The notes: a model not told the origin generated them from the letters alone. Counted from the stretch's first letter, positions 20,691-43,317 are shown. The stretch: 64,000 nt of DNA from Candidatus Pacebacteria bacterium CG_4_9_14_0_2_um_filter_40_15 (GCA_002788675.1 PFRS01000005.1:3731-67730); one strand, 5' to 3'. Program-made: numbers and translations.

Positions 20691-21863
20691 CTAGGCTATC
20701 CAGTACCCTTGAATAAAGAGTACTGTGTTGAGTATCAAAAGTATACTTGATATCCCGTACCAGGCAAAGCGCAATTTGGGTTTATCCTCCAACCACTTCG
20801 CAATAACGAGAAACATTGGGAAACATACCAGAATATAGCGTGGCATACTAGAAAATGTCCCTGTAAGGGTTGGTAACAGAAAAGCTAAAGACGAAAAGAC
20901 TAAGTATGATGGACGAAGCTTCTTGATCCAGCCTACAATGAGAGTTGTGAGTGCTAGTATACTGAGTGCAAATTCTTGAGTATATGCAAAGAACTTCCAA
21001 TTTTGCCAGTCTACCGTTACAAATATTTTTATGTAGCGGACAAGTACCTGTGGTAGTAGTATGAGTGATTCAGATCGTCCACCTCCAAATTCTTCTTGGA
21101 CATGAAAGAAATACAGCGGATCACGGAATTCAATCCATAAAAATATCATGTACAGCAGTAAGCCACCAGCAGACAAGAAAATAGTTATAAGTTTTGTGAA
21201 ATCTGTGAAATTAATTTCGTGAAGCAACTTTTTGGGATGTGAAATAAATTGACTTTGCAACAAGTTTCTTTGATACAAGTACTCAATCACAAGGGCTGGG
21301 AGTAGCGCAATTCCAATTACTTTTGTTCCGCTAGCTACAGCTGCCAGAATAATCGCATACATCCATTGTTTTTTTTTGGCAAAATAGAATGAAGAAAGAA
21401 TTAAAAGTAAAAAGAGCGACTCAGTGTAGACTGCAGCAAAGAAAAAACTGGTTGGAAAAAGTAGGAGTAGGCCGAGTGAAATATGTGAAATACTTTTTGT
21501 GAATTCTTTTTCAAACAACTTACTCCAAATAAGTAAGACACCAAAGAAAGAGACAAGTGAGATGATCTGGCCAGATATGATTGCGTTGATATGAAAGAGG
21601 CCATCAAGCCAAATCAATCCTGGATACACCGGAAAGAAGGCTTGTATCAGACCAGTTCCTATATACCCATGAGACACAATCGTAAGATAGTGAACGCCAT
21701 CAAAATTGGCCCAAGAGTATATCCAGCGTGGAAGATTATAGTTTGGCAAGATTGCGTCTGCATATGGGAATGTAGGCGCATAGAGCAAGAACAAATCAGC
21801 TAAGAAAGATAGGCAGTACAAACCAAGTAACCAAAGACTAAATTGTACTAAAAGTCTTTTCAT
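20691..21863 (-). CDS. multi-pass membrane protein, PIG-V/GT87 (DUF2029)-like mannosyltransferase-type GT-C
   Basis: WANFDGVHYLTIVSHGY resembles the W..WDG.WYL.IAE.GY motif of PIG-V/PimE-type GT-C enzymes. At least 9 TM helices. Confidence 0.5.
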   Translation of the reverse strand: MKRLLVQFSLWLLGLYCLSFLADLFLLYAPTFPYADAILPNYNLPRWIYSWANFDGVHYLTIVSHGYIGTGLIQAFFPVYPGLIWLDGLFHINAIISGQIISLVSFFGVLLIWSKLFEKEFTKSISHISLGLLLLFPTSFFFAAVYTESLFLLLILSSFYFAKKKQWMYAIILAAVASGTKVIGIALLPALVIEYLYQRNLLQSQFISHPKKLLHEINFTDFTKLITIFLSAGGLLLYMIFLWIEFRDPLYFFHVQEEFGGGRSESLILLPQVLVRYIKIFVTVDWQNWKFFAYTQEFALSILALTTLIVGWIKKLRPSYLVFSSLAFLLPTLTGTFSSMPRYILVCFPMFLVIAKWLEDKPKLRFAWYGISSILLILNTVLFIQGYWIA

Positions 21864-23521
21864 ACTTTTTTCTTATATCCTAATCCTAAATAGAAAACAA
21901 CAAATAATGTAATGAAAAATGCAGCATTTCCAATGAGCCTGGGCCAGGTGCGTTGTGTGAATTCTGTAGCAATTGCGTACTCACCAGGGGCTAATGTGAA
22001 GGCCACTCTCCCTTTAATCTCATCAGAATTGGTGTATTCAACAAGCGTCCCATTCACTCTTGTTTCCCAACCAGGGAAGTACATAACTGGTTCAACAATA
22101 GTAATATCTTCAGTTGTAGCCACAGTATAGACGTGTTCTCTTCCCGTCCAAAGCTGTGTAAGTAGTGTTGTATCTGTATTTTTTGTTAGAGTTATAGCTG
22201 AAGGTGCCCAAGAACCTATGGCAGAATAAGTAAAATCTTTAGCCATATTTTCATTTTGTGTTGAGGTTGTAAGCGTAAAGTTTTCGTAGTCTACATTTTT
22301 TTTTGTAAACGTATCGGCTGGTGCTAATTTTACTAACGGTACAATCGAAAACAACCAAACTACAGACAGTACTATAAATATCTTCTTTGAGATTCTTCCC
22401 AAAAGTGTTGCAGCTAGTGGAACACTAAAGGTGAAAAAGAAGAGTGCCCATCGCCAAGGAAATTGCATAAATCGCATAAATGGAAGCGTTCGCCAAATTG
22501 CTTGAGAACTATCCAGCTGCATAAACAAGGCAAGTAAAGCCGAGAATGATACAAAAAGGCTAAGTAACCATTTTTTAGCTTCTTTCGTTTTACTGTTCTT
22601 AATACTCAAGACCAAAGATAAAATCAACGTTAGCATTGGCAGCACCATAGAGGTAAAGCCTATTTTGAAGCCTAGAGAGTCTATAGTACCAATAAGAGAA
22701 TATCCAAATTGTTGTGGTGCTGAGAATAATTCTTTTAAGGTTACAAAATGTTGTGTGTACTCTCTTTGATTATCAGTTTGACCAATAACCGTGGCGTTCA
22801 TTTCTGTTAATGCAGGTAACCAAAACCAAAGTGTTGCACCCAGTGCAATACTACCAACTAAGGCTGCCCGCTTCCAACTTGCAAGCTGTTTCCTAAAGAC
22901 AATAGCTGCATACACAAAAAGAAATGGTACAGCAAAAACTACAGTAATATTATGTGAAAGCAAGAAAGCAGCAACTGCAGCGCCCATAAGTACTAATTGC
23001 CTGCCGGATTTTTTTAAATTGAGCCAATGAATAAGTGTAAACATCCAAGGTAACAGTGCATATGCAAGTATTTCTCCTATATTTCCTCTATATGCTAAAA
23101 GTGAAACTACATAAGGTGTCGTAAGCCAGACTAGTGCAGTAAAGACACGTATTTCTCGTTTAGAAGTGAAAAAGCCTGACCAAGAAAATACTCCAATACT
23201 TCCACCAAATAGTCCTGAGAGAACTAAGATGCTAAACGTTGTTTCGTAAGAAACTTTAGCAAAAGAAAAAGGCAACGACAAAATATTTGCCAATGGATAA
23301 TTATAATTAAAAACAGGATACCCAAAGTGATTATGCAGTACCGGAGCGATTCTAGGTGGAATTTGGAGTTCTCTAACGGCAATTTTATAGTTTGCAAAAC
23401 GAGCAAGATGATTTTCACCGTCGTGTGTGTAAGGAAACTGTGGAGCTACATAGAATCGAGCAACAAAAAAAGTAAAACCCAATAATAGCAATCCAATTTT
23501 TAAAAGCCCACTTTTTTTCAT
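21860..23521 (-). CDS. YfhO-like variant GT-C membrane protein (paralog 1 of 3)
   Basis: N-terminal motif HDGENHLARFANYKIAVRELQIPPR...FGYPVFNYNYPL is shared with the ORFs at 30567 and 49746. Many TM helices, a C-terminal soluble domain and a terminal TM. Has an ATGA overlap with the downstream gene. Confidence 0.55.
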   Translation of the reverse strand: MKKSGLLKIGLLLLGFTFFVARFYVAPQFPYTHDGENHLARFANYKIAVRELQIPPRIAPVLHNHFGYPVFNYNYPLANILSLPFSFAKVSYETTFSILVLSGLFGGSIGVFSWSGFFTSKREIRVFTALVWLTTPYVVSLLAYRGNIGEILAYALLPWMFTLIHWLNLKKSGRQLVLMGAAVAAFLLSHNITVVFAVPFLFVYAAIVFRKQLASWKRAALVGSIALGATLWFWLPALTEMNATVIGQTDNQREYTQHFVTLKELFSAPQQFGYSLIGTIDSLGFKIGFTSMVLPMLTLILSLVLSIKNSKTKEAKKWLLSLFVSFSALLALFMQLDSSQAIWRTLPFMRFMQFPWRWALFFFTFSVPLAATLLGRISKKIFIVLSVVWLFSIVPLVKLAPADTFTKKNVDYENFTLTTSTQNENMAKDFTYSAIGSWAPSAITLTKNTDTTLLTQLWTGREHVYTVATTEDITIVEPVMYFPGWETRVNGTLVEYTNSDEIKGRVAFTLAPGEYAIATEFTQRTWPRLIGNAAFFITLFVVFYLGLGYKKKV

Positions 23522-23527
23522 ATCAGG

Positions 23528-24574
23528 TTAATGACTAGCAACTTGCTCATACACTTTCTTTGTTTCTTGTGCAGTTTTTTTCCAAGTAAATGTCTTCTGC
23601 CAAGAAGAAGCTGATGCCACCCACCTCTCTCTTTTTGATTTAGACCATTCATTAATAGATAGAACTGCTTGCGCAAAGGCTTCAGCAGTGGGTTCTACCA
23701 ACAAAGCATGATCTCCTGCTACTTCAGTAAGTGATGATGTGTTGCTGCTAATAACAGGCACTCTGCATTTCATTGCTTCAAGCAGTGGTAACCCAAAACC
23801 TTCATACAATGATGGCTGTATGTAAGCAATCGCACCTGAATAGAGAGCTGAGAGTTCATCGGTTGCGTCAACAAGAACATCAGTCAAAAAGTGGACTCTT
23901 TCTCCAACATTTGAAAGTGCAAGCTGCTGTTCAACCCATTTCCATTCAGGAATAGGTTCTGGAGTGAAGTTTTTGCCCACGCAAACTAGATGAATCGACT
24001 CAGGTAAGAACTTAAGTGTTTTAATTAGTTGTGGAATATTTTTATTATAGTTAATGTCACCCACATATAACACATATTGTTTGGGGAGTGCGTATTTTTT
24101 ACGAACTTTTGCAATGGCATATTCACTTTGAGGTTCTAAAGAAGGATTAGATGCTAAATATATAACGTGAATCTTACTTTCAGGAACTCCCAAATGCTTA
24201 ATAATATCTTTTTTTGAACTTTCTGAATCAGTTATCACTGCAGACACGAACTTTAGTGCAAGTTTTTGCTTATTAAATCGCAACTTACCTTTCACTCCTG
24301 CCGGATAGAATTCTGGGAAAATAAGCGGAATAACATCATGAATAGTAACTACGGTCTTAACTTTTCTGATAACTGAAAGTGTATCAAAAAATAAATCAAA
24401 AAAAGGATAATGTACTACATCTATATGCTTTGGTTGATCTTCAGCCGAAGATTTAACAACAGAAATATCATTAAATTCTTCTAATTCGTGTAGTAAATTA
24501 CGCGTATAACTACCAATCCCTCTGGCAGCGTGTCCGGTTCCAAGTGGGAGGGTATCAATAAGTACAGTTAACAT
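23528..24574 (-). CDS. GT4 (GT1-fold) glycosyltransferase
   Basis: PSLYEGFGLPLLEAMKCRVPVISS is the E-x7-E motif. Confidence 0.8.
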   Translation of the reverse strand: MLTVLIDTLPLGTGHAARGIGSYTRNLLHELEEFNDISVVKSSAEDQPKHIDVVHYPFFDLFFDTLSVIRKVKTVVTIHDVIPLIFPEFYPAGVKGKLRFNKQKLALKFVSAVITDSESSKKDIIKHLGVPESKIHVIYLASNPSLEPQSEYAIAKVRKKYALPKQYVLYVGDINYNKNIPQLIKTLKFLPESIHLVCVGKNFTPEPIPEWKWVEQQLALSNVGERVHFLTDVLVDATDELSALYSGAIAYIQPSLYEGFGLPLLEAMKCRVPVISSNTSSLTEVAGDHALLVEPTAEAFAQAVLSINEWSKSKRERWVASASSWQKTFTWKKTAQETKKVYEQVASH

Positions 24575-24578
24575 AGAT

Positions 24579-27466: not shown

Positions 27467-28858
27467 ATGAAGAAACTTAAATCGGCTCTTCCTTATATTC
27501 TTATTATTTTTGTAGCCTTTTTTTTACGTTCCTGGAGATACTGGGAATTCCCCAATACGATGGAAACAGCAGATGAGTATGCTTGGACTTGGCTTGGATC
27601 GAGCATCTTAGCTGATGGGCAGCCTACATCCTGGTCCTATTTTGCCCCTTACGGCGAAGGGTACATTTATAAACAAGGACCTGTCCATGCCCCACTGGTA
27701 AGACCAGCAGTTGATCATCCTCCTTTATTCGCTTTTATTCCTGGAATTGCTCATCTCATTGCAACTAATAACTGGGAAACTCTTCCGGATCACAGAGTAA
27801 TTCGCATACCTATGCTGTTTTTAGGTACTCTTGCAGTTGCACTGCTTGGTTACTGGACATCTCTAGTGTTAGAAAAGAAGTGGAGTTTAGTCGCAACCGC
27901 AATCTATGCCATGGTCCCAGTATTTGTTTTCTCAAGTCGTCTTGTTGTATCAGAGAATTTTCTTATACTCCTTCTCCTCATCTTGGGGATACTTGTTCAT
28001 AGATGGGAAAATCTCTCTCAGAAAGAAAAACAGAAGCAAAATAGAATACGAATCGCTTTTCTGTTATTAGGAGTTGCTGCCCTCCTTACCAAGATTTCGG
28101 GTATTCTCATTCCAGGTATTTTAGTTTCATATGCTTTAGTCAGAAAAGATTTTCCCTTATTTAAACTCGGTATATTAGTTACTATTGCTTCAATTACTTC
28201 CTTACTTCTCTACGCAAGTTATACAAATTTCCCTCTCTTTATGGCTATACAGAAACAGCAAACCTTATTACCAATAGGTTTGTCTACGTTGTATAACAGA
28301 TTTTTCATTTATCCAAATATTGCAAATGATATTTATTATGATGGGTGGCTTTTACTTGGATTTTTTGGATTTGTATATGCACTCATAAAAAAAGACATTT
28401 CAAAAATTCAACCATTCTGGTTGTTCTCAATTTTAAGCACAGTAGTTATTCTCGGATTTATCGGAATAACAGGAGGTGAGTATACTTTCTTTGGCTGGTA
28501 TAGTTATCCAATACTACCCTTTTTTGCCCTATTTATCACTCTTTTACTCAAAGAGGCTTATGAAGAAAAGTATCTGCTAACAATTCTTTTATGGTTTTTC
28601 TTACTGCCTACAATAAATAATGTTTTTGTACATGCAACACGGACTCAACTCTTAACCAGAACGACTATCAGAATGATATATTTCTTAGGAGCTCTTCCAC
28701 TTCTCATCTCATTAACACCTCTAAAGAAATACACAAAATATGCACAACTCTTGCTATTTGTTACGATACTCTCTGCAAGCATTCTCTCAGTTATGACTAT
28801 TGATTACACTGCTAGAGATTTATTCCAACGTTCCTTTTGGAGTGAAGTAAGAAGATAA
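27467..28858 (+). CDS. PMT-family-like GT-C membrane glycosyltransferase
   Basis: ADEYAWTWLGSSILADGQPTSWSYF and VDHPPLFAFIPG resemble the PMT DE loop and the HPPL(G) motif. Confidence 0.55.
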   Translation: MKKLKSALPYILIIFVAFFLRSWRYWEFPNTMETADEYAWTWLGSSILADGQPTSWSYFAPYGEGYIYKQGPVHAPLVRPAVDHPPLFAFIPGIAHLIATNNWETLPDHRVIRIPMLFLGTLAVALLGYWTSLVLEKKWSLVATAIYAMVPVFVFSSRLVVSENFLILLLLILGILVHRWENLSQKEKQKQNRIRIAFLLLGVAALLTKISGILIPGILVSYALVRKDFPLFKLGILVTIASITSLLLYASYTNFPLFMAIQKQQTLLPIGLSTLYNRFFIYPNIANDIYYDGWLLLGFFGFVYALIKKDISKIQPFWLFSILSTVVILGFIGITGGEYTFFGWYSYPILPFFALFITLLLKEAYEEKYLLTILLWFFLLPTINNVFVHATRTQLLTRTTIRMIYFLGALPLLISLTPLKKYTKYAQLLLFVTILSASILSVMTIDYTARDLFQRSFWSEVRR

Positions 28859-28860
28859 CT

Positions 28861-30555
28861 ATGAAGAAAATTCTTTTAACCCTAAGTATACTTTGTGCAC
28901 TTATATTAGGAAGTTATCTGCGATTGCATCAGCTTGGATCAATTCCGTGGGCATTAAATAGAGATGAAGCTTCAATTGGATATAATGCATACAGTATTTT
29001 AAAAACTGGACATGATGAACATGGAGTATTTTGGCCAATAAATGTTGAGTCCTTTGGCGATTGGAAACTTCCTATCTACATGTACGCTTCCATTCCCTTT
29101 ATTTCTCTTTTTGGACTTAACGCCTGGGCTGTGAGATTACCTTCAGCACTAGCAGGAATAGCGCTTATTCCTGCTGCATACTACTTTTTTTTGTCGTTTA
29201 ACAACAAGAAAAATAATACTTCAGTAGCTATTGCTCATGTCTTTTCCTGGTTAGTGGCAATTTCTCCTTGGTCACTCAGACTCTCTCGTATTGCATATGA
29301 GGCAAATTTGGCATTGTTACTCGCTGTTTTAGGTGCAGCTTTTATAGTACGAGGCATTCTTAGTAAGAAAGCAAGCTATCTTATTCCAGGTCTCTTTTTA
29401 GCTTTTAGCACCATGCTCACGTATCATGCCTATCAAGTATTTATGCCGCTTTTTCTTGTGGTGTTACTGATCACATACAGAATCGAAATACTAACTATTT
29501 TGAAACAACAGAGAGGTCTTGTGGTCAGCTCCGTGTTTGTAGCAGTTCTTTTTGGTCTTGTGTTGCTTGTTGGGAATACTTCCGATGCAAATCAAACCAA
29601 ATATTCTGGATTATCTGCATTTTCAGAAGAAACATATCACTTTAGACTTTTTGATAAAAGAATGGCTTTTGGAGATCCAACGAGCTTACAAGCAAAAATC
29701 TATGCAAACTCAGTTAGTATGATTGTCGAGAATCTCACTCAAAATGTTGCGGCAATTCTCTCGCCTGAGTTTCTTGTAATAAACGGAGGAAGTCATGGCT
29801 CTCATGATATTCAAGGAATTGGAAATATGTATGTAATTACAGGACTTCTTGTCATTATTGGAATATTTTATACATTTAGAAATCCTTCAGTTTCCCGTAA
29901 GACAAGAGTCTCAACAGTTCTAATTGGATGGCTTTGCGTTGGATTTGTTGCTCCCGTTATAACTACTGAAGCTGCGCATTCAATACGATTTTCACCTGCA
30001 TTGTTTGCATTTGAGGGTTTAGCAGCCTACGCCATTGTTACCTTACTCCAGAACTTGCAGAAGCCGGTACTTCGATTTTCTGTAGTAGGTTTTATTTCAC
30101 TTTCTCTTATCTATTCGCTTATACAAACAACTGGCACCTATTTTGTTATTTTTCCTCAAAGAGATCATCATAAATGGCCATGGTACAGTCAACAAGTATC
30201 TTTAGACATACTCACTCTTCAATCAAACTATAAGCAAATTATTTTCCCACAAATTGATAGCTCACCATATATTTTCTTACTGTTTGATTGGCAGTATGAT
30301 CCAACTCAACTAGCAGAAAATTTGGAATACTATACTACCGACAGTGGTGGATTTAAACATGCCTCACGGCTTGAAAATATATACTTCATTCCAATGGATT
30401 GGAAAGCATTTGTTTCTTCTTCGGAACCTTTACTTACCTTCAGTGAAGCTCAAGAGTTTGAAAAACAAAACCTACGGGCAGATGACTACAAAATTCTTAA
30501 GAAATATGAATCAAACAATGCAGAAAGCACCTTTTATCTTATTTCTAACGAATAA
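28861..30555 (+). CDS. ArnT/PMT_2-like (COG1807-type) GT-C membrane glycosyltransferase
   Basis: LNRDEASIGYNAYSILKTGHDEHGVFWPINVESFGDWKLPIYMY. Start is 2 nt after the upstream stop. Confidence 0.7.
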   Translation: MKKILLTLSILCALILGSYLRLHQLGSIPWALNRDEASIGYNAYSILKTGHDEHGVFWPINVESFGDWKLPIYMYASIPFISLFGLNAWAVRLPSALAGIALIPAAYYFFLSFNNKKNNTSVAIAHVFSWLVAISPWSLRLSRIAYEANLALLLAVLGAAFIVRGILSKKASYLIPGLFLAFSTMLTYHAYQVFMPLFLVVLLITYRIEILTILKQQRGLVVSSVFVAVLFGLVLLVGNTSDANQTKYSGLSAFSEETYHFRLFDKRMAFGDPTSLQAKIYANSVSMIVENLTQNVAAILSPEFLVINGGSHGSHDIQGIGNMYVITGLLVIIGIFYTFRNPSVSRKTRVSTVLIGWLCVGFVAPVITTEAAHSIRFSPALFAFEGLAAYAIVTLLQNLQKPVLRFSVVGFISLSLIYSLIQTTGTYFVIFPQRDHHKWPWYSQQVSLDILTLQSNYKQIIFPQIDSSPYIFLLFDWQYDPTQLAENLEYYTTDSGGFKHASRLENIYFIPMDWKAFVSSSEPLLTFSEAQEFEKQNLRADDYKILKKYESNNAESTFYLISNE

Positions 30556-33685: not shown

Positions 33686-35211
33686 TCGACTACTGTTTTT
33701 TCAGAATCTGTGCGGTCAGTTGATTGACCTATAAAGTGGTATCTATCTAACTGTTGTCCATACTTAAAACCATATGAATTGGGAAGTTGTTTAACTATCG
33801 TAGTAAAAAAGAGATCAGGAGGAGTTTGTAAGTACCAAGCCGTCAAAATATATTGAAATCCATCTCCATCTACAACAGCCACTGGTCCGATTGTTGTTGA
33901 TTCTACATCTCTAATCACAGTATCAAATCCCACATGCAAAATATCTGGCTGAGATAGTGGATATTCGGTAAAGTATTTTGTTAGGTACTGAGAAAATAAT
34001 AAAATGCTAACAACAATGAATAATGTACCAATGTTTCCTTTAAGTTGTTTCAGAGCATACACTGAAGCGACTGAGAGGCAAAAGAAAAAGAGTAAGCTCC
34101 TGGTTGCATGAGGAGCATCTACTGTAACAATTGATGGAGCCAGAGAAATTACGGTTGTGTACAAGAGAAGTAATTCAAAACTACAGTATGCAATAATTTT
34201 TTTCCATTTCAGTGTTTTTTGCATGCGTTTTATACAGGTAACTAGAGCTAAGATAAGCCCAAGAATTCCAAAAAGATACACCGTTACTAATACATGACCG
34301 GACCCAGGAAGTTGATGGAGTGGGTGTGAGCCACCTCGACTCATTAAGAATGAAGGTGAAAAAGTTGCCACTGTGTTTTTAAACATCAATGTCGAATAAT
34401 AGAAATATTTATTCCCAAAAAGTTTTTGATTTGCACCTGAAAAGGATCCATACCAGAGATCAGCAGCTTCTCTCGTAGTTTCATCATTAAATAGAGTAAT
34501 ACCACTTTTTTGTGAAGTGAGAGTAACTTGACTAAAAAACAATCCAATAAAAATTGTCGAAAGTGCAAATATTGGCAATAACCATTTTTTATACGATTCA
34601 ATGCCTCTACTCAAAACAACCACTGGTAAAAAGAATGGGATTAAAAGTAGCGGCGTATTGTAGGTAATTGCAGCAAAAAGCCACAGAAATATTCCTAATA
34701 TATCTTGAGTTGTGCGAGTAAATTTCCCAAATGGTTTCCCAAATAGTAACAACAGTGCGTTTAATAAGAGAGCTAAGCCAACCATGGCCTCAAATGCAAT
34801 TCGTGAATAAAAAAAGAATACTGGAGTTGTAGCAACTACTACAGCTAACATAAGCGAATAAGGTTCACCCCATTTACTTTGTTTTGCAATAGAGTAAGCC
34901 AAAATAATCAAAGAAATTCCTGCTAACAGGGATGGAAGTCTCACCACAGCATCACTTGTGCCTAACACTGAAAAGAGTGCCACCAACAATACTGGGTATC
35001 CTGGTAACTTATAATCACCAAAAGACTCAAGCGTTATCGGCCAAGATTTTCCCCATTCATCTCTACCTGTTTCCTTGAGTAGTAGAGCATTATATGCTAA
35101 TCCAGCTTCATCCCTATTTAATATCTGTGGGAGTGTATCAAGCTTGTATAATCGAGCACCAAAAGAAAGAAATATAATAAGAACTAAGAAACTGGTGCCT
35201 AATCTTTTCAT
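33649..35211 (-). CDS. ArnT/PMT_2-like GT-C membrane glycosyltransferase
   Basis: LNRDEAGLAYNALLLKETGRDEWGKSWPITLESFGDYKLPGYPV. Confidence 0.7.
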   Translation of the reverse strand: MKRLGTSFLVLIIFLSFGARLYKLDTLPQILNRDEAGLAYNALLLKETGRDEWGKSWPITLESFGDYKLPGYPVLLVALFSVLGTSDAVVRLPSLLAGISLIILAYSIAKQSKWGEPYSLMLAVVVATTPVFFFYSRIAFEAMVGLALLLNALLLLFGKPFGKFTRTTQDILGIFLWLFAAITYNTPLLLIPFFLPVVVLSRGIESYKKWLLPIFALSTIFIGLFFSQVTLTSQKSGITLFNDETTREAADLWYGSFSGANQKLFGNKYFYYSTLMFKNTVATFSPSFLMSRGGSHPLHQLPGSGHVLVTVYLFGILGLILALVTCIKRMQKTLKWKKIIAYCSFELLLLYTTVISLAPSIVTVDAPHATRSLLFFFCLSVASVYALKQLKGNIGTLFIVVSILLFSQYLTKYFTEYPLSQPDILHVGFDTVIRDVESTTIGPVAVVDGDGFQYILTAWYLQTPPDLFFTTIVKQLPNSYGFKYGQQLDRYHFIGQSTDRTDSEKTVVEWKAGSWQVETF

Positions 35212-35226: not shown

Positions 35227-36960
35227 TTAGTCTGTTGTTTGAACGGTCAGCAGTGTAAATCTCTTTCCGTTCGAGAGTGTAATTTCTTGAGTTACCCTTG
35301 ATTGTATACTATTTGTCTCGTCAAAGTGCTCAGAATACTCTTCTGAAGGTAGCAAAAGGTGTTGCTGATCTACATACTTTTCTGAAACTTTGAATGATAC
35401 GTTGTCCATTTCACTAAATTGATACTGTTCTGTTGACCAGTTTGCAAATTCAGTGCCAGAGTAAGGCCCATATGCAAGTAACCATAAATAAAATTTATCA
35501 GGAGTGCCTAAAAGTGTCAGTGACTGTTCTGGTGAAATATACGATGAAACAGCTGTCGCAAGTTCACTCTGAGATCTAAACCAAGCATCATCACTGACCT
35601 TTGGATACACTGAAAAATAGTAACAACTAAAAGCTGCTGCATAAAAAACGGCAATCAATCCAAATAAACCCACAAGTGACCTTTTGACTGTACGATGTGT
35701 CTTCGTATTCCAAAAAAGAGTGAAACCTTCATATATTCCTATAGAAATTATCACAGAAAAAGGGATGAGTGCATTTAAAAAGCGCAGCGCATGTGGAACT
35801 GTAAGTGGTACGGCAGCAGGTAGTGCTGCACTTACAATCCAAGTAATCAAGATTGCTAACATCCATTTTCTTTTTCTAGCCAAGACATACAAGCCTAGAC
35901 AAAAGGGAAGCATAAATGGAAACAGGAACAGTCCATATTTCCCAGTACCATGTCGAAGATTTGTATCACCCGTGATAAAGATAAATCTTGGTGAAAGTTG
36001 TTCACTCAGATTATGCGCTAAGACCTGACCTGTAAAATATATTCTGTGAAAGAGAACTCTATCTAGCAGTGAATCTCCAGCTATGGTTCTATACTCATTG
36101 GCCTGTACTACTTGCTCATGATTTTGCAAAATCGATGGCGTACTTAATCTAAACTGCATACTGGCTTCATACAACGCTGATTTGAATAATGGAAGTAATA
36201 AGATAAGAAAAACAAGTAGATACAGTCCTAACTTTAGACCGAGAAAAATGTTATTTTTCACTCTCATCCACGCTTTGGGATCTGTAATAAAGTTACTTTG
36301 AGAAACCATCCAAACTAGGTATATTGGAATCCACACATATCTGACGGAAAAATAAGTGTAAGTAGCTAGAGCCGCTAAACCCATTGCCAACACAAGCATC
36401 TGAAATCGCTTCTTTGATCTTAGAAGCACGAGAACTGCCAGCCCTAAAATAAACTGTCCCAAATAAGCTTCAAATCCAGTTCTAGAAAACTGTATTGCCC
36501 AAGGACTAAATCCCAGAGTAACTACCGTTGCAATTCCAGCACCTATTGCTGAAATCCTGAAAGTGTCATGTTTGGGTGTTTTGTTCGTATAGAGAGTTCG
36601 TAACAGAGCATACACAATAACAAACGTTCCAAAACCCGCCATCAAACTCGGTAATCTCACAGAAAAAGCTGAGGGGGTAAAAAGTAACGATGCTAAATAT
36701 ACAGCCCAAAGGTACACGGGCATTTTATAATCACCATACGAAGGATACAGTGACTGTAGCCAACTATTCCCATGCATGTCATGCCCCGTTGTTACCAATG
36801 CTTTTGCATCTACAAGCATTGCTATTTCATCAATATAGAGGCTTGCAGGATGGTTCGGAAATGCACCTATTCGAAGAAAGAAAGCCCATACCACAATGCC
36901 TAGTAACGCTAGTACGGTCAGCAACATTCGAGTTGTGAGTTTATTTTTTTTCATATCCAA
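35227..36960 (-). CDS. ArnT/PMT_2-like GT-C membrane glycosyltransferase
   Basis: LYIDEIAMLVDAKALVTTGHDMHGNSWLQSLYPSYGDYKMPVYLW. Confidence 0.7.
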   Translation of the reverse strand: MDMKKNKLTTRMLLTVLALLGIVVWAFFLRIGAFPNHPASLYIDEIAMLVDAKALVTTGHDMHGNSWLQSLYPSYGDYKMPVYLWAVYLASLLFTPSAFSVRLPSLMAGFGTFVIVYALLRTLYTNKTPKHDTFRISAIGAGIATVVTLGFSPWAIQFSRTGFEAYLGQFILGLAVLVLLRSKKRFQMLVLAMGLAALATYTYFSVRYVWIPIYLVWMVSQSNFITDPKAWMRVKNNIFLGLKLGLYLLVFLILLLPLFKSALYEASMQFRLSTPSILQNHEQVVQANEYRTIAGDSLLDRVLFHRIYFTGQVLAHNLSEQLSPRFIFITGDTNLRHGTGKYGLFLFPFMLPFCLGLYVLARKRKWMLAILITWIVSAALPAAVPLTVPHALRFLNALIPFSVIISIGIYEGFTLFWNTKTHRTVKRSLVGLFGLIAVFYAAAFSCYYFSVYPKVSDDAWFRSQSELATAVSSYISPEQSLTLLGTPDKFYLWLLAYGPYSGTEFANWSTEQYQFSEMDNVSFKVSEKYVDQQHLLLPSEEYSEHFDETNSIQSRVTQEITLSNGKRFTLLTVQTTD

Positions 36961-38707
36961 TCCAAAGTGGAATTCCCGTTGGGCTCGACAGTGTATACAC
37001 TTGAGTCATATCTCTTTGATCGTTTATATCTGTAACTACTTTACTCTTTGGTGAAGCAAAAATTACGTCAGAATCTTTAACTTGGTCAGCAGTATCAAAA
37101 AAGACAATATTCTTATAGGTAATGAATTCTGACTGATCCATAACCTCTGTGCTATCTTGTGCCTGAACCTGTCGTGGATCGATACTATTCATAAAGAAAT
37201 AGTACATTGCAGGGCGACCATACTCCCTAGATACTGCAACTTTTTTATCCATTTCAACATATTTTTGAACTTCAGTCATAACATCCTGATACCCATACTG
37301 CCATTCCAAAGCGCTCTCCTTCGGATAGATAACGGTATAATAGCGCCAGAATGCACCCACTTGCAGTAGATACACACTCGCTAAAGAAATAACTGAAATA
37401 CGAAACAGGTTAGTCTTCATATTGTTCTTAAGAAGAAGGTAGCCTTCACTCATGCCTATCGCGACAATAAACAGCACTAGTGGTGCCATAGGTACTATGC
37501 GAAGTGCATGAGGAGTTGCCAATGAAATACTCGCCGGTAACACACCAATTACTAACCATATAAGTAAAAAAGCACCAAGCAGTTTATATCTTCGAACTAA
37601 AACATATATACCAAATGAGATAAAGACTGCATCTAAGAAGTACAAAATACCCATATATCCAGTTGAATGACGTTTGTTTACATCACCATGGATAAATAAG
37701 AAATCTAAACTGAAGTGAGAAAGTGCATTTGTAAGCACTTCACGACTAAAGAGTACATATCTATGGAAAAATACTCGCGCTCCAGGTGTTCCAGCTGCAG
37801 CAATAGAAGCATTGCTTTCAGTAATTATATCTAATCGAGAAAATATACTCGTTTCAGCAAATCTTTGAGATACTTCAGGAGAACGCAGCGTCGCAATAAG
37901 TGGTAAAAGAAGGAGTAAAAAGAAACACCCAATGAGTACTTCACTTTTTGGAAGCTTTTGTATATGAGTAAGTACCCCTTTCTTGAACACTGACCAAATA
38001 TTTTCAAAAAAAGTGCTTGCTAGAATGCTTAAAAAAATGAGTGGCGCAATTACTCTGGTGGCATGATAGGTATAGACGCTAACTGCAAAAAACACTGCTG
38101 ATATAAGCAAAAATCTACACTTTCGATTCCGAGCAAATTGTAGACTGAAGATTATTCCCCAAAGTAAGAATGCAGTGGCAAGATTTACTTCCCATGCAGC
38201 TCGTGAAAACATAATCAGCCAAGAAGATACTGCCGTCACAAACACACTCAGGAGTTGGATCAGTGCAACTTGAGTTTTCGGCATTCTTGATGCAAAGCGG
38301 AGTAATAGTAGTTCTGAGAAGAAGTACATGCCTACTACAATTAAGAGACCAGCTAACATACTTGGCAATCTAATAGAAAAAACTGTAAGACCAAAAAGTT
38401 TAATGCTTGCAGCAGCAAAATAAAAATATCCAGATGGTTTCCAGTCACCAAAAGATTCAAATGCGACAAGTGGCCATGGAGTACCGTGATGGTCGGCGCC
38501 AGTTTGACCTATTGAGTAAGCATCATACCCAAGGGCAACCTCCTCCCAATAAGGAGAAATTAAGCTCCCCAAATTGAAGCCTCTCAGAAACAGTGCTAAG
38601 ATAACTACAGTGAAAAGGGCTAGAGTTGTAAGGTTCTTCTTCATACGCTTGTAACAACAGTATATAGCCTGGCATGAAAAAATTGAACAAGACATTTTTA
38701 CTTTCAC
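36941..38707 (-). CDS. ArnT/PMT_2-like GT-C membrane glycosyltransferase
   Basis: YWEEVALGYDAYSIGQTGADHHGTPWPLVAFESFGDWKPSGYFY. A more likely start is the internal Met at 38644 (MKKNLTTL), which removes the overlap with the divergent gene at 38674. Confidence 0.65.
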   Translation of the reverse strand: MKVKMSCSIFSCQAIYCCYKRMKKNLTTLALFTVVILALFLRGFNLGSLISPYWEEVALGYDAYSIGQTGADHHGTPWPLVAFESFGDWKPSGYFYFAAASIKLFGLTVFSIRLPSMLAGLLIVVGMYFFSELLLLRFASRMPKTQVALIQLLSVFVTAVSSWLIMFSRAAWEVNLATAFLLWGIIFSLQFARNRKCRFLLISAVFFAVSVYTYHATRVIAPLIFLSILASTFFENIWSVFKKGVLTHIQKLPKSEVLIGCFFLLLLLPLIATLRSPEVSQRFAETSIFSRLDIITESNASIAAAGTPGARVFFHRYVLFSREVLTNALSHFSLDFLFIHGDVNKRHSTGYMGILYFLDAVFISFGIYVLVRRYKLLGAFLLIWLVIGVLPASISLATPHALRIVPMAPLVLFIVAIGMSEGYLLLKNNMKTNLFRISVISLASVYLLQVGAFWRYYTVIYPKESALEWQYGYQDVMTEVQKYVEMDKKVAVSREYGRPAMYYFFMNSIDPRQVQAQDSTEVMDQSEFITYKNIVFFDTADQVKDSDVIFASPKSKVVTDINDQRDMTQVYTLSSPTGIPLWIGYEKK

Positions 38708-39804
38708 TTAGCGTGCTTATTGCATTATTAGTTACTTTACCAGTGCTGTCCTTTCCAAGTTTCTTTCTGCAGAAATCAAATATGGATTCGTTTGGTCAAC
38801 TGTACGCTAATTCACAGTATGTAAAAGGAGAGGCTACACAACAACGAATTGATGATGCCACACTGTATATTTATGCTGGATATGCGTATGTTAAGGGCGA
38901 GGATCCAACAACCATTAACTTTGAACATCCTCCCCTAGGAAAATATATTTTAGGACTCTCTAACCTCCTCTTTGGGAATTCGTTACTACTCAATTTAGTC
39001 ATTTATGCTGCTTTTCTGGCCACATTTGCTTCGCTCGCACGACTTTTTACACAAAAGAACCTACTTATTCTTGGATCAGTTCTGTTTCTAGGAACAACTC
39101 GACTGATTTACGTTAATGTGGGCCAAGGGATGCTTGATATTTTTTCGACACTATTATTAATGCTGATTTTACGGCTACTTTTTTCATCAGTTGGTAGTTT
39201 TAAAAAATATGTTCTGACTGGTGTGCTTATCGGTGCGATTGCAGCCACCAAGTATGCATTTCCCTCAATTGGTCTCCCAATACTGCTTACTTTAGTTTGG
39301 GCAGCACTGTCAAAAGAGCTACTTATCAGTTTAGTTTCATTACCCATTGGAGCTCTGACATACTTAGCTAGTTATGTAGTGTATTTTTTAAATCATTCTT
39401 TAGTGGATTTTATAAGATTTGAATGGTTTCGACTCAAATGGTGGGTAGTTGATAGAAATATTCCACCTTTTTTAATTTTAAAAACATTATTTGTTGGTCA
39501 ATTTCAGGATTGGAGAATGCTGACTACTGTTAGATCATCTGTTTGGTCAATGAGCTGGCCTATTTTATTTGTTTCTCATTTCATCGGCCTTCTCTATGCT
39601 AAATTTGATAAAAGAATACTAATAATTATGGGGTATGCTTCTATCCAACTAGCAGTATATGCTGTCGGTTCAGCCTCGTATGATCGTTACTTAATTGGTC
39701 TCATTCCGCTCTGGTTGCTCGTTGTGGTTGCAGGTTTAGATAACTATTCGAAGAAACAGACAGTCTACTCTGCACTAAGCAAAAGTGTTAACAAAAAAAA
39801 GTAG
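38674..39804 (+). CDS. PMT-family-like GT-C membrane glycosyltransferase (short form)
   Basis: FEHPPLGKYILGLSN matches the PMT (GT39) DVHPPLGK motif. Multiple TM helices. Confidence 0.55.
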   Translation: MKKLNKTFLLSLSVLIALLVTLPVLSFPSFFLQKSNMDSFGQLYANSQYVKGEATQQRIDDATLYIYAGYAYVKGEDPTTINFEHPPLGKYILGLSNLLFGNSLLLNLVIYAAFLATFASLARLFTQKNLLILGSVLFLGTTRLIYVNVGQGMLDIFSTLLLMLILRLLFSSVGSFKKYVLTGVLIGAIAATKYAFPSIGLPILLTLVWAALSKELLISLVSLPIGALTYLASYVVYFLNHSLVDFIRFEWFRLKWWVVDRNIPPFLILKTLFVGQFQDWRMLTTVRSSVWSMSWPILFVSHFIGLLYAKFDKRILIIMGYASIQLAVYAVGSASYDRYLIGLIPLWLLVVVAGLDNYSKKQTVYSALSKSVNKKK

Positions 39805-41457
39805 TTACCATTTAGTCTTTGTACTGTCAAATATATAGAATTTTGGCTGTCTATCACTGCCGTACACAACGTAAACAGCCTTATCAAATGGCATAATGTC
39901 CTCAGGCGAAGTGACTAAGATTGTGTTTTCTCTTAGTAGATCACCTTCAACAAATGAATCCTGGAATAAGTACTTAATGAGTGAACCTCCATGATAATAT
40001 ATTGGACTCGTTTTTCGAGCAAAGAGTGCATATATGTATGGCTGACCATATTTTGAGGTAAAAATGATATTTTGCACTTCATGCTTTCCGTCTTTACCCG
40101 TTTCGTATGGAATCACATAGTTAAAAGCATCAATATATCCATCCTTAAAATCGTCAGCACTGTTTCGTGCAAAATTCTTAAAATAGTAACTGGAGTACTC
40201 GATGGTAAACAATGCATGCAATAAAATGAATGTTCCTACTATGAGTTGGAAGAATATCGTTTTTCTATTTCTAGAATCACGGAGCTTTTTAACCACAGCA
40301 TGATTTCCCGCAAAGCGGAGTAATTCTGCAATACCCAGTGTGGAAAACAATAGAAACCCAATTATAGCTGTTAAAGCTCTATTACTGTGTGGAACCTCTG
40401 TTGCCACTGCTGCTGGTAAAATTCCAAAAACAATACAGGCGCTTGCCAGACTAAACACCTGAAAAACATATTTTGGCAAAGTATTTTTTTTGAGTAGATT
40501 CCAGAGTATCCAAGAGACTACTCCTAAAACGAGCGCATATGTTGTTGGATAGAGCACTCCATGTACCCCATCACCATGTCGTTGCGTTGTTGTTTCGCCA
40601 AAAAGTAGAAAGTCGGGATGCAAATGAAGAAAGAATTGCTGAAGAGTAACCCATACACTTGTAAAAAATCCATAGCCTTGTGCAAATACCGTCACCCCGG
40701 CTCTCTCTAAACCATTTCTAAAGAGTAAGTCAAAAACCAACGGAATTAACATCACTGCACTAATCACAGAAGGAACAACTAAACGTGTAATATCTGAAAA
40801 AAATGTTTTGCGATGTTGCCACACTAAATAGAAACCCAAAAGTGGAACCGTAATCTTTGTACTATGGTAGGTATATAAAGATAAAATAAATAAAGCTACG
40901 CTTAAAGAAAGTAGTACAACAGTTCGATTTGTTTTTTTCCATGCTGTTAGAAAGAGATACACTCCCCAAATAACCATAGTAAGTGCTAAGCCAGATTCAA
41001 AACCCGTACGAGTAAAATGAATATGCCAAGGAGACACGGCTAAACTAAGTCCAAAGATCAGTGCTAATGCGGATCTATATTTACTCTCTTCAAAAAGGGA
41101 TCGTCCAAGGAGTATTGCACCGAACACAGCCATAATTCCTGAAAGAGCAAAAGGCAATCTGACTGCCCAAAGATTCATACCGAAAAGAACTGTAAAAAAT
41201 CCATTTAAGTAGATTGCAAAAGGAGCTTTATAGTCACCAAATGAACGAAAAGATATAGGTAAACGTGTTAACCACTCATCACGTCTAGTAGTCAAAACAG
41301 CATGCCCGTTATATCCAATTGCGGCTTCATCCCAAGTCATACCATGTGGAACTTCACCTAATTTATATGTACGGAGAAATGCAGCAATCAAAAGTATGCT
41401 TACAAAGCCTACTACATACCAATTTTTTCTTACAAACTGTTCTAGTGCTTTAATCAT
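39805..41457 (-). CDS. ArnT/PMT_2-like GT-C membrane glycosyltransferase
   Basis: MTWDEAAIGYNGHAVLTTRRDEWLTRLPISFRSFGDYKAPFAIY. Confidence 0.7.
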   Translation of the reverse strand: MIKALEQFVRKNWYVVGFVSILLIAAFLRTYKLGEVPHGMTWDEAAIGYNGHAVLTTRRDEWLTRLPISFRSFGDYKAPFAIYLNGFFTVLFGMNLWAVRLPFALSGIMAVFGAILLGRSLFEESKYRSALALIFGLSLAVSPWHIHFTRTGFESGLALTMVIWGVYLFLTAWKKTNRTVVLLSLSVALFILSLYTYHSTKITVPLLGFYLVWQHRKTFFSDITRLVVPSVISAVMLIPLVFDLLFRNGLERAGVTVFAQGYGFFTSVWVTLQQFFLHLHPDFLLFGETTTQRHGDGVHGVLYPTTYALVLGVVSWILWNLLKKNTLPKYVFQVFSLASACIVFGILPAAVATEVPHSNRALTAIIGFLLFSTLGIAELLRFAGNHAVVKKLRDSRNRKTIFFQLIVGTFILLHALFTIEYSSYYFKNFARNSADDFKDGYIDAFNYVIPYETGKDGKHEVQNIIFTSKYGQPYIYALFARKTSPIYYHGGSLIKYLFQDSFVEGDLLRENTILVTSPEDIMPFDKAVYVVYGSDRQPKFYIFDSTKTKW

Positions 41458-41502: not shown

Positions 41503-43317
41503 ATGTTAAAGAAATTGACTTCTCTAGTTAGAACAAAAAATAGATTCTATTCTTCAAAGAAAGAAATATTTTTTTACGTTTTAGGCTTCTTTTTTTTTCT
41601 AGCAATTCGTACTGTTTCCATTCACAGCATTCCTAGCGTCATAAGTCATGATGAAATATACTACCCAGCTGAAGCTCGGGCTCTTGCTGTATCTGGACAT
41701 GATCCTTCAGGAATGTGGAATCCATGGTCATTAACTTCAGCACATCCTTTGTACGCAGAATTACCCGGTGTCGTAATGACTCCAGCGGCACTATTATTTA
41801 AAGATCCTATTCTCGCTGCCAAAGCAACACACATTTTTCTTGGTACATTGTTATGTCTCGTTATAGCTGCATTCGCCTATCAAGTTACAAAGAATAAACA
41901 AATTGCTGGAATTGCGTTTATCTTGGCAGGTATTAATCCATGGCTCTTTCAATTCTCAAGAATGGGATTTGATGCAGTATTTAGCCTCTTCTTTTTACTC
42001 AGTGGTGTTACTGTCTATCTCGCTAGCTCTTCAACTAGAAAAATCTGGTCTCTTCCTTTCTTTTTTATTGGTTTTTTCCAATATCAGGGATTCAAAGTAC
42101 TTTTTGTTCCTCTGATTTTTGCTACAGTTCTATTTGACCTCTATTCTCAAGATCCTAAATCTATATGGAGAACACTTAAAAAGAAGTTTTTAACACGAGA
42201 TATATCTTCGCTCATTCCCGCTATAGTTGTGATCACTTTTACTTTGGCGCTTTTTGGCACGTATATGGTCAGATTATCATCACAAGCCGCTGGTCAACGG
42301 AGTGCTGACCTCATTTTTACCGACATAGATTATATATCCACCCAAACTAATATTGATCGCCAACAAACTTTTAGTTCGCCTGTCACATCATATTTTATTA
42401 ATAAGGGAACTGCAATTTTTGATCGTTTTATTTCTCAATACTTTGAATCATTTTCATGGCATCATCTTTTTATTACTGGTGAACCACTACGGAATCCATT
42501 CTCCGTTTGGAAACACGGTATGTTCTACCTACTTGATATTGTCCTTATTATTATGGGTGCGACGTACATTGCCATTCAAAAGAAAGTGTCCTATTCCGGG
42601 GTCTTTTTAGGGTTCTTAGTTTTAATAGCACCCCTAGCTGGGGCACTAAACGCTAAAGGCTCATGGATCATGTTCCGATCAAGTCTGTTAATTCCATTAT
42701 TTATTGTTTTCGCTGCATCTGGATTGTGGTGGCTTAATCGATTAGTTCCCAAAATGCTTACTGTATTATTTGTATGTATGTACATAGTTTTTGTAGCCAG
42801 ATTCTTTTTTATGTACTTTTTTAGCTATCCCATCATCGGCACTCAAGGCGAGTACTTTAGTGAACGACTTATTGCTAGCTATATTCAAAGAAATCCTGAA
42901 AATCAAATTCTAGTCTATGCAAGTGAACCAAGATTTATGTTCGAATCAATTTTGGTGTATACAAACGCAATTAGTAAAAATTCAATAGATAATGTGCACG
43001 CAGCTTATATTGGAGAAGACTTCTCACATAACAATTTTAAAGTCCTTAACAAATGCTACGAGCCCAGCAATGATCCAAATGTAATCTCAATTGTAAATCA
43101 AGCAACACAGCCATGTAACAATCAGCAAAATGAAAAGAGTACTACAACAACATCTATACCTTCACTAATAGATAGTGGTGCTCTGTTCACTATTCATAAT
43201 GATACTCTCTGTTCACAATATCCATTGAATACTTTTAGCCATGTGACTAAAAATCTTTTTAATGTCGAATCATTAACTGATCAAATGTATTGTTCAACAT
43301 TTATTATTCGAAATTAA
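41503..43317 (+). CDS. PMT_2/ArnT-like GT-C membrane glycosyltransferase
   Basis: ISHDEIYYPAEARALAVSGHDPSGMWNP...AHPLYAELPG is a motif paralogous to 25439..27283. C-terminal soluble domain. Confidence 0.6.
   Translation: MLKKLTSLVRTKNRFYSSKKEIFFYVLGFFFFLAIRTVSIHSIPSVISHDEIYYPAEARALAVSGHDPSGMWNPWSLTSAHPLYAELPGVVMTPAALLFKDPILAAKATHIFLGTLLCLVIAAFAYQVTKNKQIAGIAFILAGINPWLFQFSRMGFDAVFSLFFLLSGVTVYLASSSTRKIWSLPFFFIGFFQYQGFKVLFVPLIFATVLFDLYSQDPKSIWRTLKKKFLTRDISSLIPAIVVITFTLALFGTYMVRLSSQAAGQRSADLIFTDIDYISTQTNIDRQQTFSSPVTSYFINKGTAIFDRFISQYFESFSWHHLFITGEPLRNPFSVWKHGMFYLLDIVLIIMGATYIAIQKKVSYSGVFLGFLVLIAPLAGALNAKGSWIMFRSSLLIPLFIVFAASGLWWLNRLVPKMLTVLFVCMYIVFVARFFFMYFFSYPIIGTQGEYFSERLIASYIQRNPENQILVYASEPRFMFESILVYTNAISKNSIDNVHAAYIGEDFSHNNFKVLNKCYEPSNDPNVISIVNQATQPCNNQQNEKSTTTTSIPSLIDSGALFTIHNDTLCSQYPLNTFSHVTKNLFNVESLTDQMYCSTFIIRN

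Follow-up and report, generated by a model that had tools for sequence, protein, structure and literature searches.

Bacteria of the candidate phyla radiation (CPR) have shed most biosynthetic pathways and are thought to live attached to other cells, and their surface chemistry is essentially unknown. We analyzed a 64-kb stretch of DNA (hereafter the window) from Candidatus Pacebacteria bacterium CG_4_9_14_0_2_um_filter_40_15 (GCA_002788675.1 PFRS01000005.1:3731-67730), with a focus on positions 20691-43317, where 13 multi-pass membrane proteins related to lipid-carrier-dependent (GT-C) glycosyltransferases are encoded in a dense array; positions are those of the whole window, and genes are named by their left coordinate. 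The reading we favor, at a probability of roughly 55%, is that this stretch represents a genuine, functional battery of GT-C enzymes that would assemble a wall-anchored heteropolysaccharide outside the membrane, with one enzyme per linkage. What the analysis shows directly is which genes are present, that they are of GT-C families and fold, that their catalytic-loop residues are intact, how old the paralogs are, and that donor synthases lie alongside. An earlier reading made from the DNA alone (the original prediction) had described the stretch as a GT-C array for lipid-carrier-dependent extracytoplasmic glycosylation, and the families, the fold, and the intact loop residues all support that description. 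The array holds no new kind of enzyme, as all of its parts fall within the known GT-C superfamily and the known scheme in which a glycosyltransferase family 2 (GT2) enzyme loads a sugar and a GT-C enzyme transfers it outside the cell; what is new is the class-wide, ancient, multi-family array and its implications. No paper on GT-C arrays in CPR bacteria was found in the literature searched, which is not proof of absence.

An open reading frame (ORF) listing, combined with hydropathy and Pfam, identified 15 ORFs in the array stretch, i.e., the 13 multi-pass membrane proteins and two cytoplasmic enzymes (a GT4 and a GT2). Four further GT-C genes (3935, 14118, 15674, and 49746) are located elsewhere in the window, bringing the total to 17, besides the Wzx flippase (Table 1); hydropathy peaks predict 7-13 transmembrane segments in each of these 17 proteins. 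The original prediction had given exactly these numbers of membrane proteins (13 and 17), and its description of the genes as almost back to back, with frequent overlaps of a few nucleotides, agrees with the gene coordinates; the GT4 and GT2 genes that interrupt the array were absent from its count. Among the junctions within the array, some overlap (by 4, 4, and 37 nt) and most others leave a gap of 0-30 nt. The 13 GT-C genes cover 20,490 of 22,627 bases (91%) of the array stretch, and all 17 cover 27.7 kb (43%) of the window. The strand changes six times within the array, which thus is not a single operon. An unbroken minus-strand run is found at 18016-27283, with the order, 5' to 3', of the ArnT-like GT-C 25439, the GT2, the GT4, the YfhO-like GT-C, the PIG-V-like GT-C, a GalE-like epimerase, a PpgS-like GT2, a DUF2304 protein, and an AglJ-like GT2. 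G+C content is 36-46% all along the window. The window sequence matches an ENA metagenome contig at 100% identity and contig PFDF01000014.1 of GCA_002772875.1 at 99.99%, and those relatives of its proteins that bear a name are "Candidatus Pacebacteria" and other Microgenomates-type CPR bacteria. The organism occurs in many metagenomes (92 blocks).

Sorting by BLAST and profile-profile comparison (hhalign) assigns the 17 proteins to five GT-C lineages rather than to a single family of paralogs. Nine proteins are ArnT/PMT_2-like, with one additional short PMT-like protein; three are YfhO/PTPS_related-like, with one distant relative of 774 amino acids; two are PIG-M/TMEM260-related and without a Pfam model; and one is PIG-V/Gpi18-like. 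The ArnT/PMT_2-like proteins include a core family of five (28861, 33649, 35227, 36941, and 39805), with the motif DE..Y.A...D..G..P...SFGD[WY]K.P; a divergent pair (25439 and 41503), which show 29% mutual identity (E=8e-84) and are linked to the core family by hhalign at 99.9%; and a subgroup with DE...DHPPL (27467 and 32249), linked to the core family at 98.7% and to the short PMT-like 38674 (DD...EHPPLGKY) at 94.7%. The distant relative 3935 joins the YfhO/PTPS_related type (21860, 30567, and 49746) at 99.6%, and the family without a Pfam model (14118 and 15674) is linked to the core family at 98.5% and to the YfhO type at 96.5%. Overall, profile-profile comparison links all families (probability 87-99.9%) save the PIG-V-like one (20691), which was joined through the Pfam domains of its homologs.

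Only six of the 17 proteins reach a Pfam gathering threshold. PMT_2 scores 29-39 bits (cutoff 26.1) in 27467, 32249, and 39805, the last being the only core member above threshold, and a sub-threshold 16-21 bits in 33649, 35227, 36941, and 28861. Sub-threshold Pfam matches are all that was found for 3935, 33649, 35227, and 36941, and seven proteins (14118, 15674, 20691, 25439, 28861, 38674, and 41503) have no Pfam match at E-values up to 0.01; relaxing the Pfam cutoff to E<=10 brought no further match for 20691, 38674, or 15674. NCBIfam gave no glycosyltransferase match for 28861, 25439, and 41503, and its curated ArnT model was not matched. By comparison, the precomputed domains of close homologs include PMT, PMT_2, YfhO, AftD-N, and Mannosyl_trans2. 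YfhO-type window proteins match PF10131 rather than PF09586, and homologs of 49746 at 41-48% identity carry both; 20691 has no Pfam match of its own, and many of its homologs at 45-53% identity carry PF04188. The profile of the 14118/15674 family matches the PDB entries for glycosylphosphatidylinositol (GPI) mannosyltransferase 1 (PIG-M; E=7e-5) and TMEM260 (E=0.048). With regard to the classes named previously (ArnT/PMT, YfhO, and PIG-V), all were recovered by Pfam, homolog domains, and structure search, and the list was incomplete in that it did not name the 14118/15674 class. Many homologs already carry the label "ArnT family", "GT39", "Gpi18-like", or "YfhO" in databases; the window proteins are best termed GT-C superfamily members related to ArnT, PMT, YfhO, and PIG-V, rather than established members of these families proper. 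The C-terminal ~110 residues of 25439 and 41503 form a common domain with four conserved cysteines (C510, C537, C578, and C605 in 25439), a pattern that fits a disulfide-bonded domain outside the cell.

AlphaFold (AF2) models were built for two representatives, 28861 and 49746, and compared with solved structures by Foldseek, with the other families linked to these through profiles. Both models contain helix bundles. The 28861 model (predicted local distance difference test [pLDDT] 89.2) matched ArnT, AglB, STT3, and PglB at E~3e-7, with a TM score of 0.53-0.55 for ArnT; further matches were to ALG9, Pmt4, Pmt1-2, Emb, and AftD. The 49746 model (pLDDT 85.2) matched STT3 (E~6e-5), AftD (3e-4), PglB, AftA, and DPY19. 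In the latter model, a beta-sandwich (464-541) is followed by a terminal helix (545-568), which puts a sizeable outside domain between the final two helices; a large extracellular domain that separates the final two transmembrane helices is a feature of YfhO (PMC5836110). By Foldseek, the beta-sandwich also weakly resembles accessory domains from fucosidases and an agarase (probability ~0.9, ~100-140 columns), and may represent a glycan-binding module.

Conservation of putative catalytic residues was judged in family alignments built from 80 related loci. All 17 copies keep, following the first transmembrane segment, the first-loop acidic residues that are invariant in their own family, which answers the check on the loop-1 catalytic Asp/Glu named in the original prediction; neither lost acidic loops nor membership in families other than glycosyltransferases, either of which had been named as grounds for abandoning the reading, was found. 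The full motif DE..(G)Y.A.S....G.D.HG..WP...SFGD.K.P had been claimed as shared by the PMT/ArnT-like members; this holds for the core five, with EE in 36941, and four other PMT_2-like members retain only the DE. The core five also keep D52, D67, K69, E147, H315, H373, and R376. Short Lys-rich N-termini predict that loop 1 faces outward. In ArnT, the RYA and YFEKP motifs of periplasmic loop 1 are functionally required (PMC5377068), and the core motifs DE..Y.A and FGD[WY]K.P are placed like these two, so as to be analogous to, and not identical with, them. By this residue-conservation test, none of the 17 proteins looks like a pseudo-enzyme, and the pseudo-enzyme reading was rejected on the retention of invariant loop-1 residues in all 17.

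Paralogs in the window are just 23-29% identical to one another; for 15 of the 17 proteins, reciprocal best hits at 27-51% identity mark an ortholog in other Pacebacteria, the exception being the 25439/41503 pair. Because orthologs elsewhere are closer than in-window paralogs, the duplications predate the divergence of these genera; recent tandem duplication was therefore rejected, and the reciprocal best hits bear out the earlier claim that these are old paralogs. That ancient copies were each retained argues for distinct roles.

Relatives of the core family were sought by an alignment-based pattern scan in which each GTDB species was represented by one genome; this was needed since 28861, used alone as query against genome contigs, brought up no relative. 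The alignment-based scan identified at least 587 relatives, of which the best 80 all belong to CPR of the Microgenomates type (Pace-, Levy-, Gottesman-, Woese-, Davies-, and Shapirobacteria). Many third-party-annotated metagenome-assembled genomes (MAGs) among these 80 loci are titled "uncultured Gammaproteobacteria" or "Pseudomonadales" (L006, L009, L012, L013, L017, L020, and others); their closest relatives are Pacebacteria and Levybacteria, and the titles look taxonomically wrong. A search of 1.84 billion protein clusters in public data at E<=1e-10 assigned 13,614 representatives to the core family, and no characterized member of the family was found.

The density of GT-C genes was compared in 21.6-kb frames at 55 other loci with full 10-kb flanks. 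The median was 7 GT-C-like ORFs per frame (range 1-9), covering ~51% of bases, as compared with 12 ORFs and 82% in this genome; across Microgenomates-type CPR, 21.6 kb normally carries 5-9 GT-C genes. Arrays of this sort are thus a trait of the whole class, with this genome at the extreme, and not a one-off, so that "hyper-expanded", the term used in the original prediction, is apt insofar as this genome tops the range and inapt insofar as arrays are usual in these bacteria. All five GT-C families recur beside the core family in other genomes.

Genes that could supply lipid-linked donors are found at both the left edge of the window and next to the array (Table 1). Two GT2s (18016 and 19063) share a strand with the array and run on from it without a break; the third (1-624) is cut by the window edge, and its full form has 308 amino acids and two C-terminal transmembrane segments (L084, GCA_002772875.1 PFDF01000014.1). 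The sugar cannot be named for these three GT2s because all score far under equivalog cutoffs. A further GT2 at 13270-14046 is ordinary, and not DPM1-like, by NCBIfam. In 48 of the 80 other genomes, a DPM1-like GT2 is present within 10 kb of the array. In light of these genes, the GT-Cs may use polyprenyl-phosphate-linked donors. While the three DPM1-like synthases with small membrane partners, the nucleotide-sugar enzymes, the Wzx flippase, and the LytR-CpsA-Psr (LCP) ligase of the original prediction are all present, its term "complete system" goes too far, since the window yielded neither a priming phosphoglycosyl transferase nor a GtrA-type flippase; its small membrane proteins belong to the DUF2304 and LAB_N types, and none matches the GtrA/GtcA type.

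In the scheme that we propose, the three DPM1/GtrB-like GT2s would take sugars from nucleotide sugars and put them on polyprenyl phosphate at the membrane's inner face; two of these enzymes would work with small membrane proteins (DUF2304 and LAB_N). The lipid-linked sugars would then get to the outer face, where the 17 GT-Cs would transfer them onto a growing envelope glycan; each GT-C, as a separate ancient ortholog group, would presumably serve a single sugar, linkage, or position on the acceptor. The lipid-linked core of the glycan would be begun in the cytoplasm by the neighboring GT2 and GT4 enzymes, from rhamnose and other nucleotide sugars, and exported by Wzx, after which the LCP ligase would attach the polymer to peptidoglycan. 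The logic of this scheme would be that of mycobacterial arabinogalactan and lipoarabinomannan (LAM) assembly, in a ~1.2-Mb genome. We infer here the identity of the donors, the order of action, and the acceptor; a wall heteropolysaccharide is favored as acceptor, with moderate confidence, because the gene content is that of a wall-polysaccharide locus.

Several points weigh against this scheme. All functional claims rest on homology; no NCBIfam equivalog model was matched, and searches of PDB with sequence profiles gave no match for the core, the PIG-V-like, or the short PMT-like family. The similarity to PMT_2 and PMT is equally compatible with protein acceptors, and YfhO- and PIG-like enzymes could work on lipoglycans. 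The window also showed no recognizable gene for a priming phosphoglycosyl transferase, a Wzy polymerase, or a GtrA-type flippase. Finally, within +-10 kb of arrays elsewhere, LCP was found at 6 of 80 loci and rml at 0 of 80, a comparison that is underpowered as both are more than 10 kb from the anchor here; since +-10 kb would miss them in this window too, we do not count this result against the wall-polymer model. Wzx was found beside the arrays of 19 of 80 other genomes within the same distance.

Among the alternatives, the most viable, if unlikely, is that the GT-Cs modify secreted or surface proteins (e.g., pilins, S-layer, or Ser/Thr/Pro-rich proteins) in the manner of PMT/GT39 enzymes, with paralogs serving different substrates or adding successive sugars. 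Ten PMT_2/PMT-like members with a DE or DD first-loop motif, the weak match of the 14118/15674 family to TMEM260, a protein O-mannosyltransferase, and the Pro/Thr/Ser-rich tail encoded by the neighboring gene 11724-13190 are consistent with this explanation; set against these are the absence of MIR and TPR acceptor-binding domains in Pfam scans and of recognizable pilin or S-layer genes in the window, as well as neighbors (Wzx, LCP, rml, and many GT2/GT4 genes) typical of a polysaccharide locus. Known bacterial PMT systems, moreover, have one enzyme rather than 10-17.

We give a slightly lower chance to lipoglycans or glycolipids as products, i.e., membrane-anchored molecules resembling lipoteichoic acid (LTA) or lipomannan (LM), extended or decorated outside and not attached to peptidoglycan. 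LTA is glycosylated by YfhO-type enzymes via C55-P-sugars (PMC5836110), relatives of PIG-V and PIG-M work on lipid-anchored glycans, and LCP is seldom near arrays elsewhere; here, by contrast, LCP and Wzx flank the YfhO-type gene 49746, and no LTA synthase or glycolipid-anchor gene was recognized in the window.

It is improbable that the array represents a switchable repertoire, in which alternative surface decorations are varied against phages or for host recognition and there is no single fixed pathway. A T9 tract at 22296-22304 in gene 21860-23521 is T8 in a JGI 3300008094 contig that is otherwise 99.99% identical, and the T8 form frameshifts this YfhO-type gene into pieces of 128 and 409 amino acids; the difference could be phase variation or an assembly error. 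Array composition and order also vary between genomes, as a switchable repertoire might be expected to do. This is, however, a single such variant in 21.7 kb, and the array is 100% identical in three independent assemblies, with orthologs conserved across genera and all 17 copies intact. Finally, the explanation that many copies are pseudo-enzymes, transporters, or structural membrane proteins draws on the seven proteins without a Pfam match and the four with sub-threshold matches only, and is largely refuted by profile links, homolog domains, two confident GT-C models, retained invariant acidic and basic residues, and transporter folds at Foldseek noise level (probability <=0.23) against both models.

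A broader proposal can also be made, which we hold only tentatively: Microgenomates-class CPR may share an ancient, class-wide line of 7 to >17 GT-Cs that builds a complex envelope glycan almost wholly outside the membrane, as an independent parallel to arabinogalactan/LAM, at the expense of ~2% or more of a ~1.2-Mb genome, and through this glycan these bacteria, presumed to be episymbionts, may recognize or attach to surfaces. As one window protein occurs on a 1.19-Mb contig, the genome comprises at least 1.19 Mb. Such a reduced genome spends 27.7 kb on 17 GT-Cs and at least 65 kb on one glycan locus, with relatives much alike, an investment that points to an important and complex envelope glycan in CPR. 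With the arrays, a defined set of genes is also at hand from which to attempt heterologous reconstitution and to predict glycan complexity from genomes.

With regard to neighboring genes, the window holds other short-chain dehydrogenase/reductase sugar enzymes in addition to the genes of Table 1, and about 10 cytoplasmic GT2/GT4 enzymes in all. The sugars used would seem to include fucose or another 6-deoxyhexose, given a GDP-L-fucose synthase-like gene (10590-11567, minus strand; NCBIfam Fcl E=7.6e-90, under the equivalog cutoff); no GDP-mannose dehydratase was identified adjoining it. The glycan locus runs at least 10 kb past the left window edge (L084 10308-20318, in the contig named above), where the full ArnC-like GT2 is accompanied by genes for a GT4, a methyltransferase, and a hexapeptide acetyltransferase, together with a second flippase (Polysacc_synt) and three orphan multi-pass proteins of 394, 548 (PMT_2 E=0.014), and 469 amino acids (DUF8201, precomputed).

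Other genes in the window lack a family assignment. A 761-amino-acid soluble protein (8167-10452, minus strand) has no Pfam or NCBIfam family; its C-terminus, HGIVHGHPHDRN, resembles by eye a kinase-type catalytic loop, and two orphans of 198 amino acids each (6600-7196 and 7336-7932) adjoin it. A membrane-anchored protein of 488 amino acids (11724-13190, plus strand), also with no family match, ends in a Pro/Thr/Ser-rich tail, ...PEGPVEPTSAPSPSAMPVETETPTP, which appears to be the type of region modified by O-glycosylation systems. Between a GT-C and a DPM1-like GT2, a soluble orphan of 243 amino acids (17284-18015, plus strand) showed a sub-threshold Pesticin/lysozyme-like match (E=1.4e-3).

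Table 1. Putative glycan-assembly genes of the window (aa, amino acids; L numbers, related loci; percentages, identity unless marked hhalign)
Positions	Strand	Feature	Size	Matches and residues
1..624	-	ArnC/GtrB-like GT2, putative polyprenyl-P-sugar synthase, cut by window edge		best NCBIfam ArnC 3.9e-38
614..931	-	small membrane partner LAB_N	105 aa	PF07578 E=2.5e-21
3935..6259	+	large YfhO-related GT-C	774 aa	DUF6044 E=1.3e-3 (sub-threshold); hhalign 99.6% to YfhO/PTPS; D41 kept
14118..15677	+	GT-C of family without Pfam model	519 aa	D52, D56 kept
15674..17281	+	second member of 14118 family	535 aa	24% to 14118; D50, D54 kept
18016..18732	-	AglJ/DPM1-like GT2	238 aa	NCBIfam AglJ 1.1e-32; also Dol-P hexose transferase, PpgS
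18719..19084	-	small membrane partner DUF2304	121 aa	PF10066 E=2.3e-15
19063..19758	-	PpgS-like GT2	231 aa	NCBIfam polyprenyl-phospho-GalNAc synthase PpgS 4.6e-33, covers 2-215 of 226
19742..20680	-	GalE-like UDP-hexose 4-epimerase		TIGR01179 E=5e-67
20691..21863	-	PIG-V/Gpi18-like GT-C, ~11 transmembrane segments	390 aa	homologs named "Gpi18-like mannosyltransferase"; invariant D55, E148 kept
21860..23521	-	YfhO/PTPS_related GT-C	553 aa	PF10131 E=5e-14; D34, R41, E150, E240 kept; ortholog L012/L005 41%
23528..24574	-	cytoplasmic GT4 inside array		PF00534 E=5.5e-26; no transmembrane segment
24579..25352	-	cytoplasmic GT2 inside array		PF00535 E=1e-21; no transmembrane segment
25439..27283	-	divergent ArnT/PMT_2-like GT-C, 4-Cys C-terminal domain	614 aa	D36-E37 kept
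27467..28858	+	PMT_2-type GT-C	463 aa	PF13231 E=1.2e-6; D36-E37, D83 kept; orthologs 34-40%
28861..30555	+	core ArnT-like GT-C	564 aa	motif DE...SFGDWKLP; homologs carry PF02366/PF13231
30567..32252	-	YfhO/PTPS_related GT-C	561 aa as called, ORF to 32303	PF10131 E=1.7e-13; D59, E175, E269 kept
32249..33685	-	PMT_2-type GT-C	478 aa	PF13231 E=1.3e-9; D47-E48, D102 kept
33649..35211	-	core ArnT-like GT-C	520 aa	PMT_2 E=4.9e-4; motif DE...SFGDYKLP; ortholog L004 44%
35227..36960	-	core ArnT-like GT-C, start uncertain	566-577 aa	PMT_2 E=1.1e-3; DE...SYGDYKMP; orthologs 34-42%
36941..38644	-	core ArnT-like GT-C	567 aa as called, ORF to 38707	PMT_2 E=1.1e-3; EE for DE; orthologs 38-46%
38674..39804	+	short PMT-like GT-C	376 aa	DD...EHPPLGKY; invariant D61, D77; orthologs 40-42%
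39805..41457	-	core ArnT-like GT-C	550 aa	PF13231 E=4.2e-8; DE...SFGDYKAP; orthologs 49-51%
41503..43317	+	divergent ArnT/PMT_2-like GT-C, partner of 25439	604 aa	BLAST to core down to 1e-12; D50-E51 kept
43575..48172	-	five cytoplasmic GT2/GT4 glycosyltransferases		Pfam
48175..49746	-	Wzx/MOP flippase		PF13440 E=3e-47; NCBIfam MOP flippase 4.7e-29
49746..51485	-	YfhO/PTPS_related GT-C adjoining Wzx	579 aa as called, ORF to 51545	PF10131 E=6.9e-7; homologs PF09586
51551..52738	+	LCP ligase, divergent		PF03816 E=1.5e-27
52978..55480	+	rmlB, rmlC, rmlD, dTDP-rhamnose pathway		PF16363 4.6e-81, PF00908 2.8e-29, PF04321 2.4e-45

Among known systems, one close counterpart is mycobacterial and corynebacterial arabinogalactan and LM/LAM assembly (Emb, Aft, Mpt, PimE, and Rv3779, with Ppm1, PpgS-Rv3632, and LCP), where many GT-Cs act outside with polyprenyl-P-sugars, one per linkage. 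LM/LAM is built by GT-Cs that use polyprenyl-P-mannose, and arabinogalactan is decorated through PpgS, Rv3632 (a small membrane protein), and Rv3779 (a GT-C) (PMC3485146); in M. tuberculosis, Rv3634c, Rv3631, and Rv3632 feed Rv3779 (PMC3485146, PMC5389812). In the window, a GalE-like epimerase forms a trio with a PpgS-like GT2 and a small membrane protein that is reminiscent of Rv3634c/Rv3631/Rv3632; rhamnose genes and LCP are also present, and Foldseek recovers Emb, AftA, and AftD. By contrast, the window families are ArnT/PMT_2-, YfhO-, and PIG-V-like with no Emb or Aft orthologs, no decaprenyl-P-arabinose pathway was seen, and the genes are clustered rather than scattered, in another phylum and a ~1.2-Mb genome. 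Non-redundant GT-C orthogroups and an LCP gene, the two elements of a mycobacterial-type pathway, are present here and may be functionally linked, with LCP linkage elsewhere at 6 of 80 in a low-power comparison.

In the CsbB-GtcA-YfhO and GtlA-GtlB systems of Firmicutes teichoic acids, a GT2 makes C55-P-sugar and a YfhO-type GT-C transfers the sugar outside (PMC5836110), and the YfhO architecture is reproduced in the 49746 model; these systems differ in having one GT-C each as opposed to 17, no GtrA/GtcA-type flippase or teichoic acid genes were recognized here, and the window proteins match PF10131, not PF09586. The ArnC-ArnT (GT83) system is similar in that ArnT is among the best structural matches of 28861, an ArnC-like GT2 is present, and two first-loop motifs are similarly placed, and dissimilar in that the NCBIfam ArnT model is not matched and sequence identity is ~12%. 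CPR bacteria are generally considered to be without lipopolysaccharide, in which case lipid A cannot be the acceptor. With PMT (GT39) and TMEM260, the window proteins share PMT_2 matches, the loop-1 DE, a motif resembling HPPL (found in three of them), and similarity by Foldseek to Pmt4 and Pmt1-2; unlike PMT, they have no MIR domain, are much shorter or have other C-terminal domains, and occur in a gene context without sign of protein acceptors. As for PIG-V/Gpi18 (GT76) and PIG-M (GT50), homologs of 20691 carry PF04188 and the 14118/15674 profile matches PIG-M, but this is a bacterium without a GPI pathway, and the kinship is at the family or fold level only. As compared with ArnC/ArnT, CsbB/YfhO, Ppm1 or PpgS with the mycobacterial GT-Cs, and Dpm1/PMT, the array described here differs in number (17 GT-Cs in 64 kb), clustering, family mix, and lineage.

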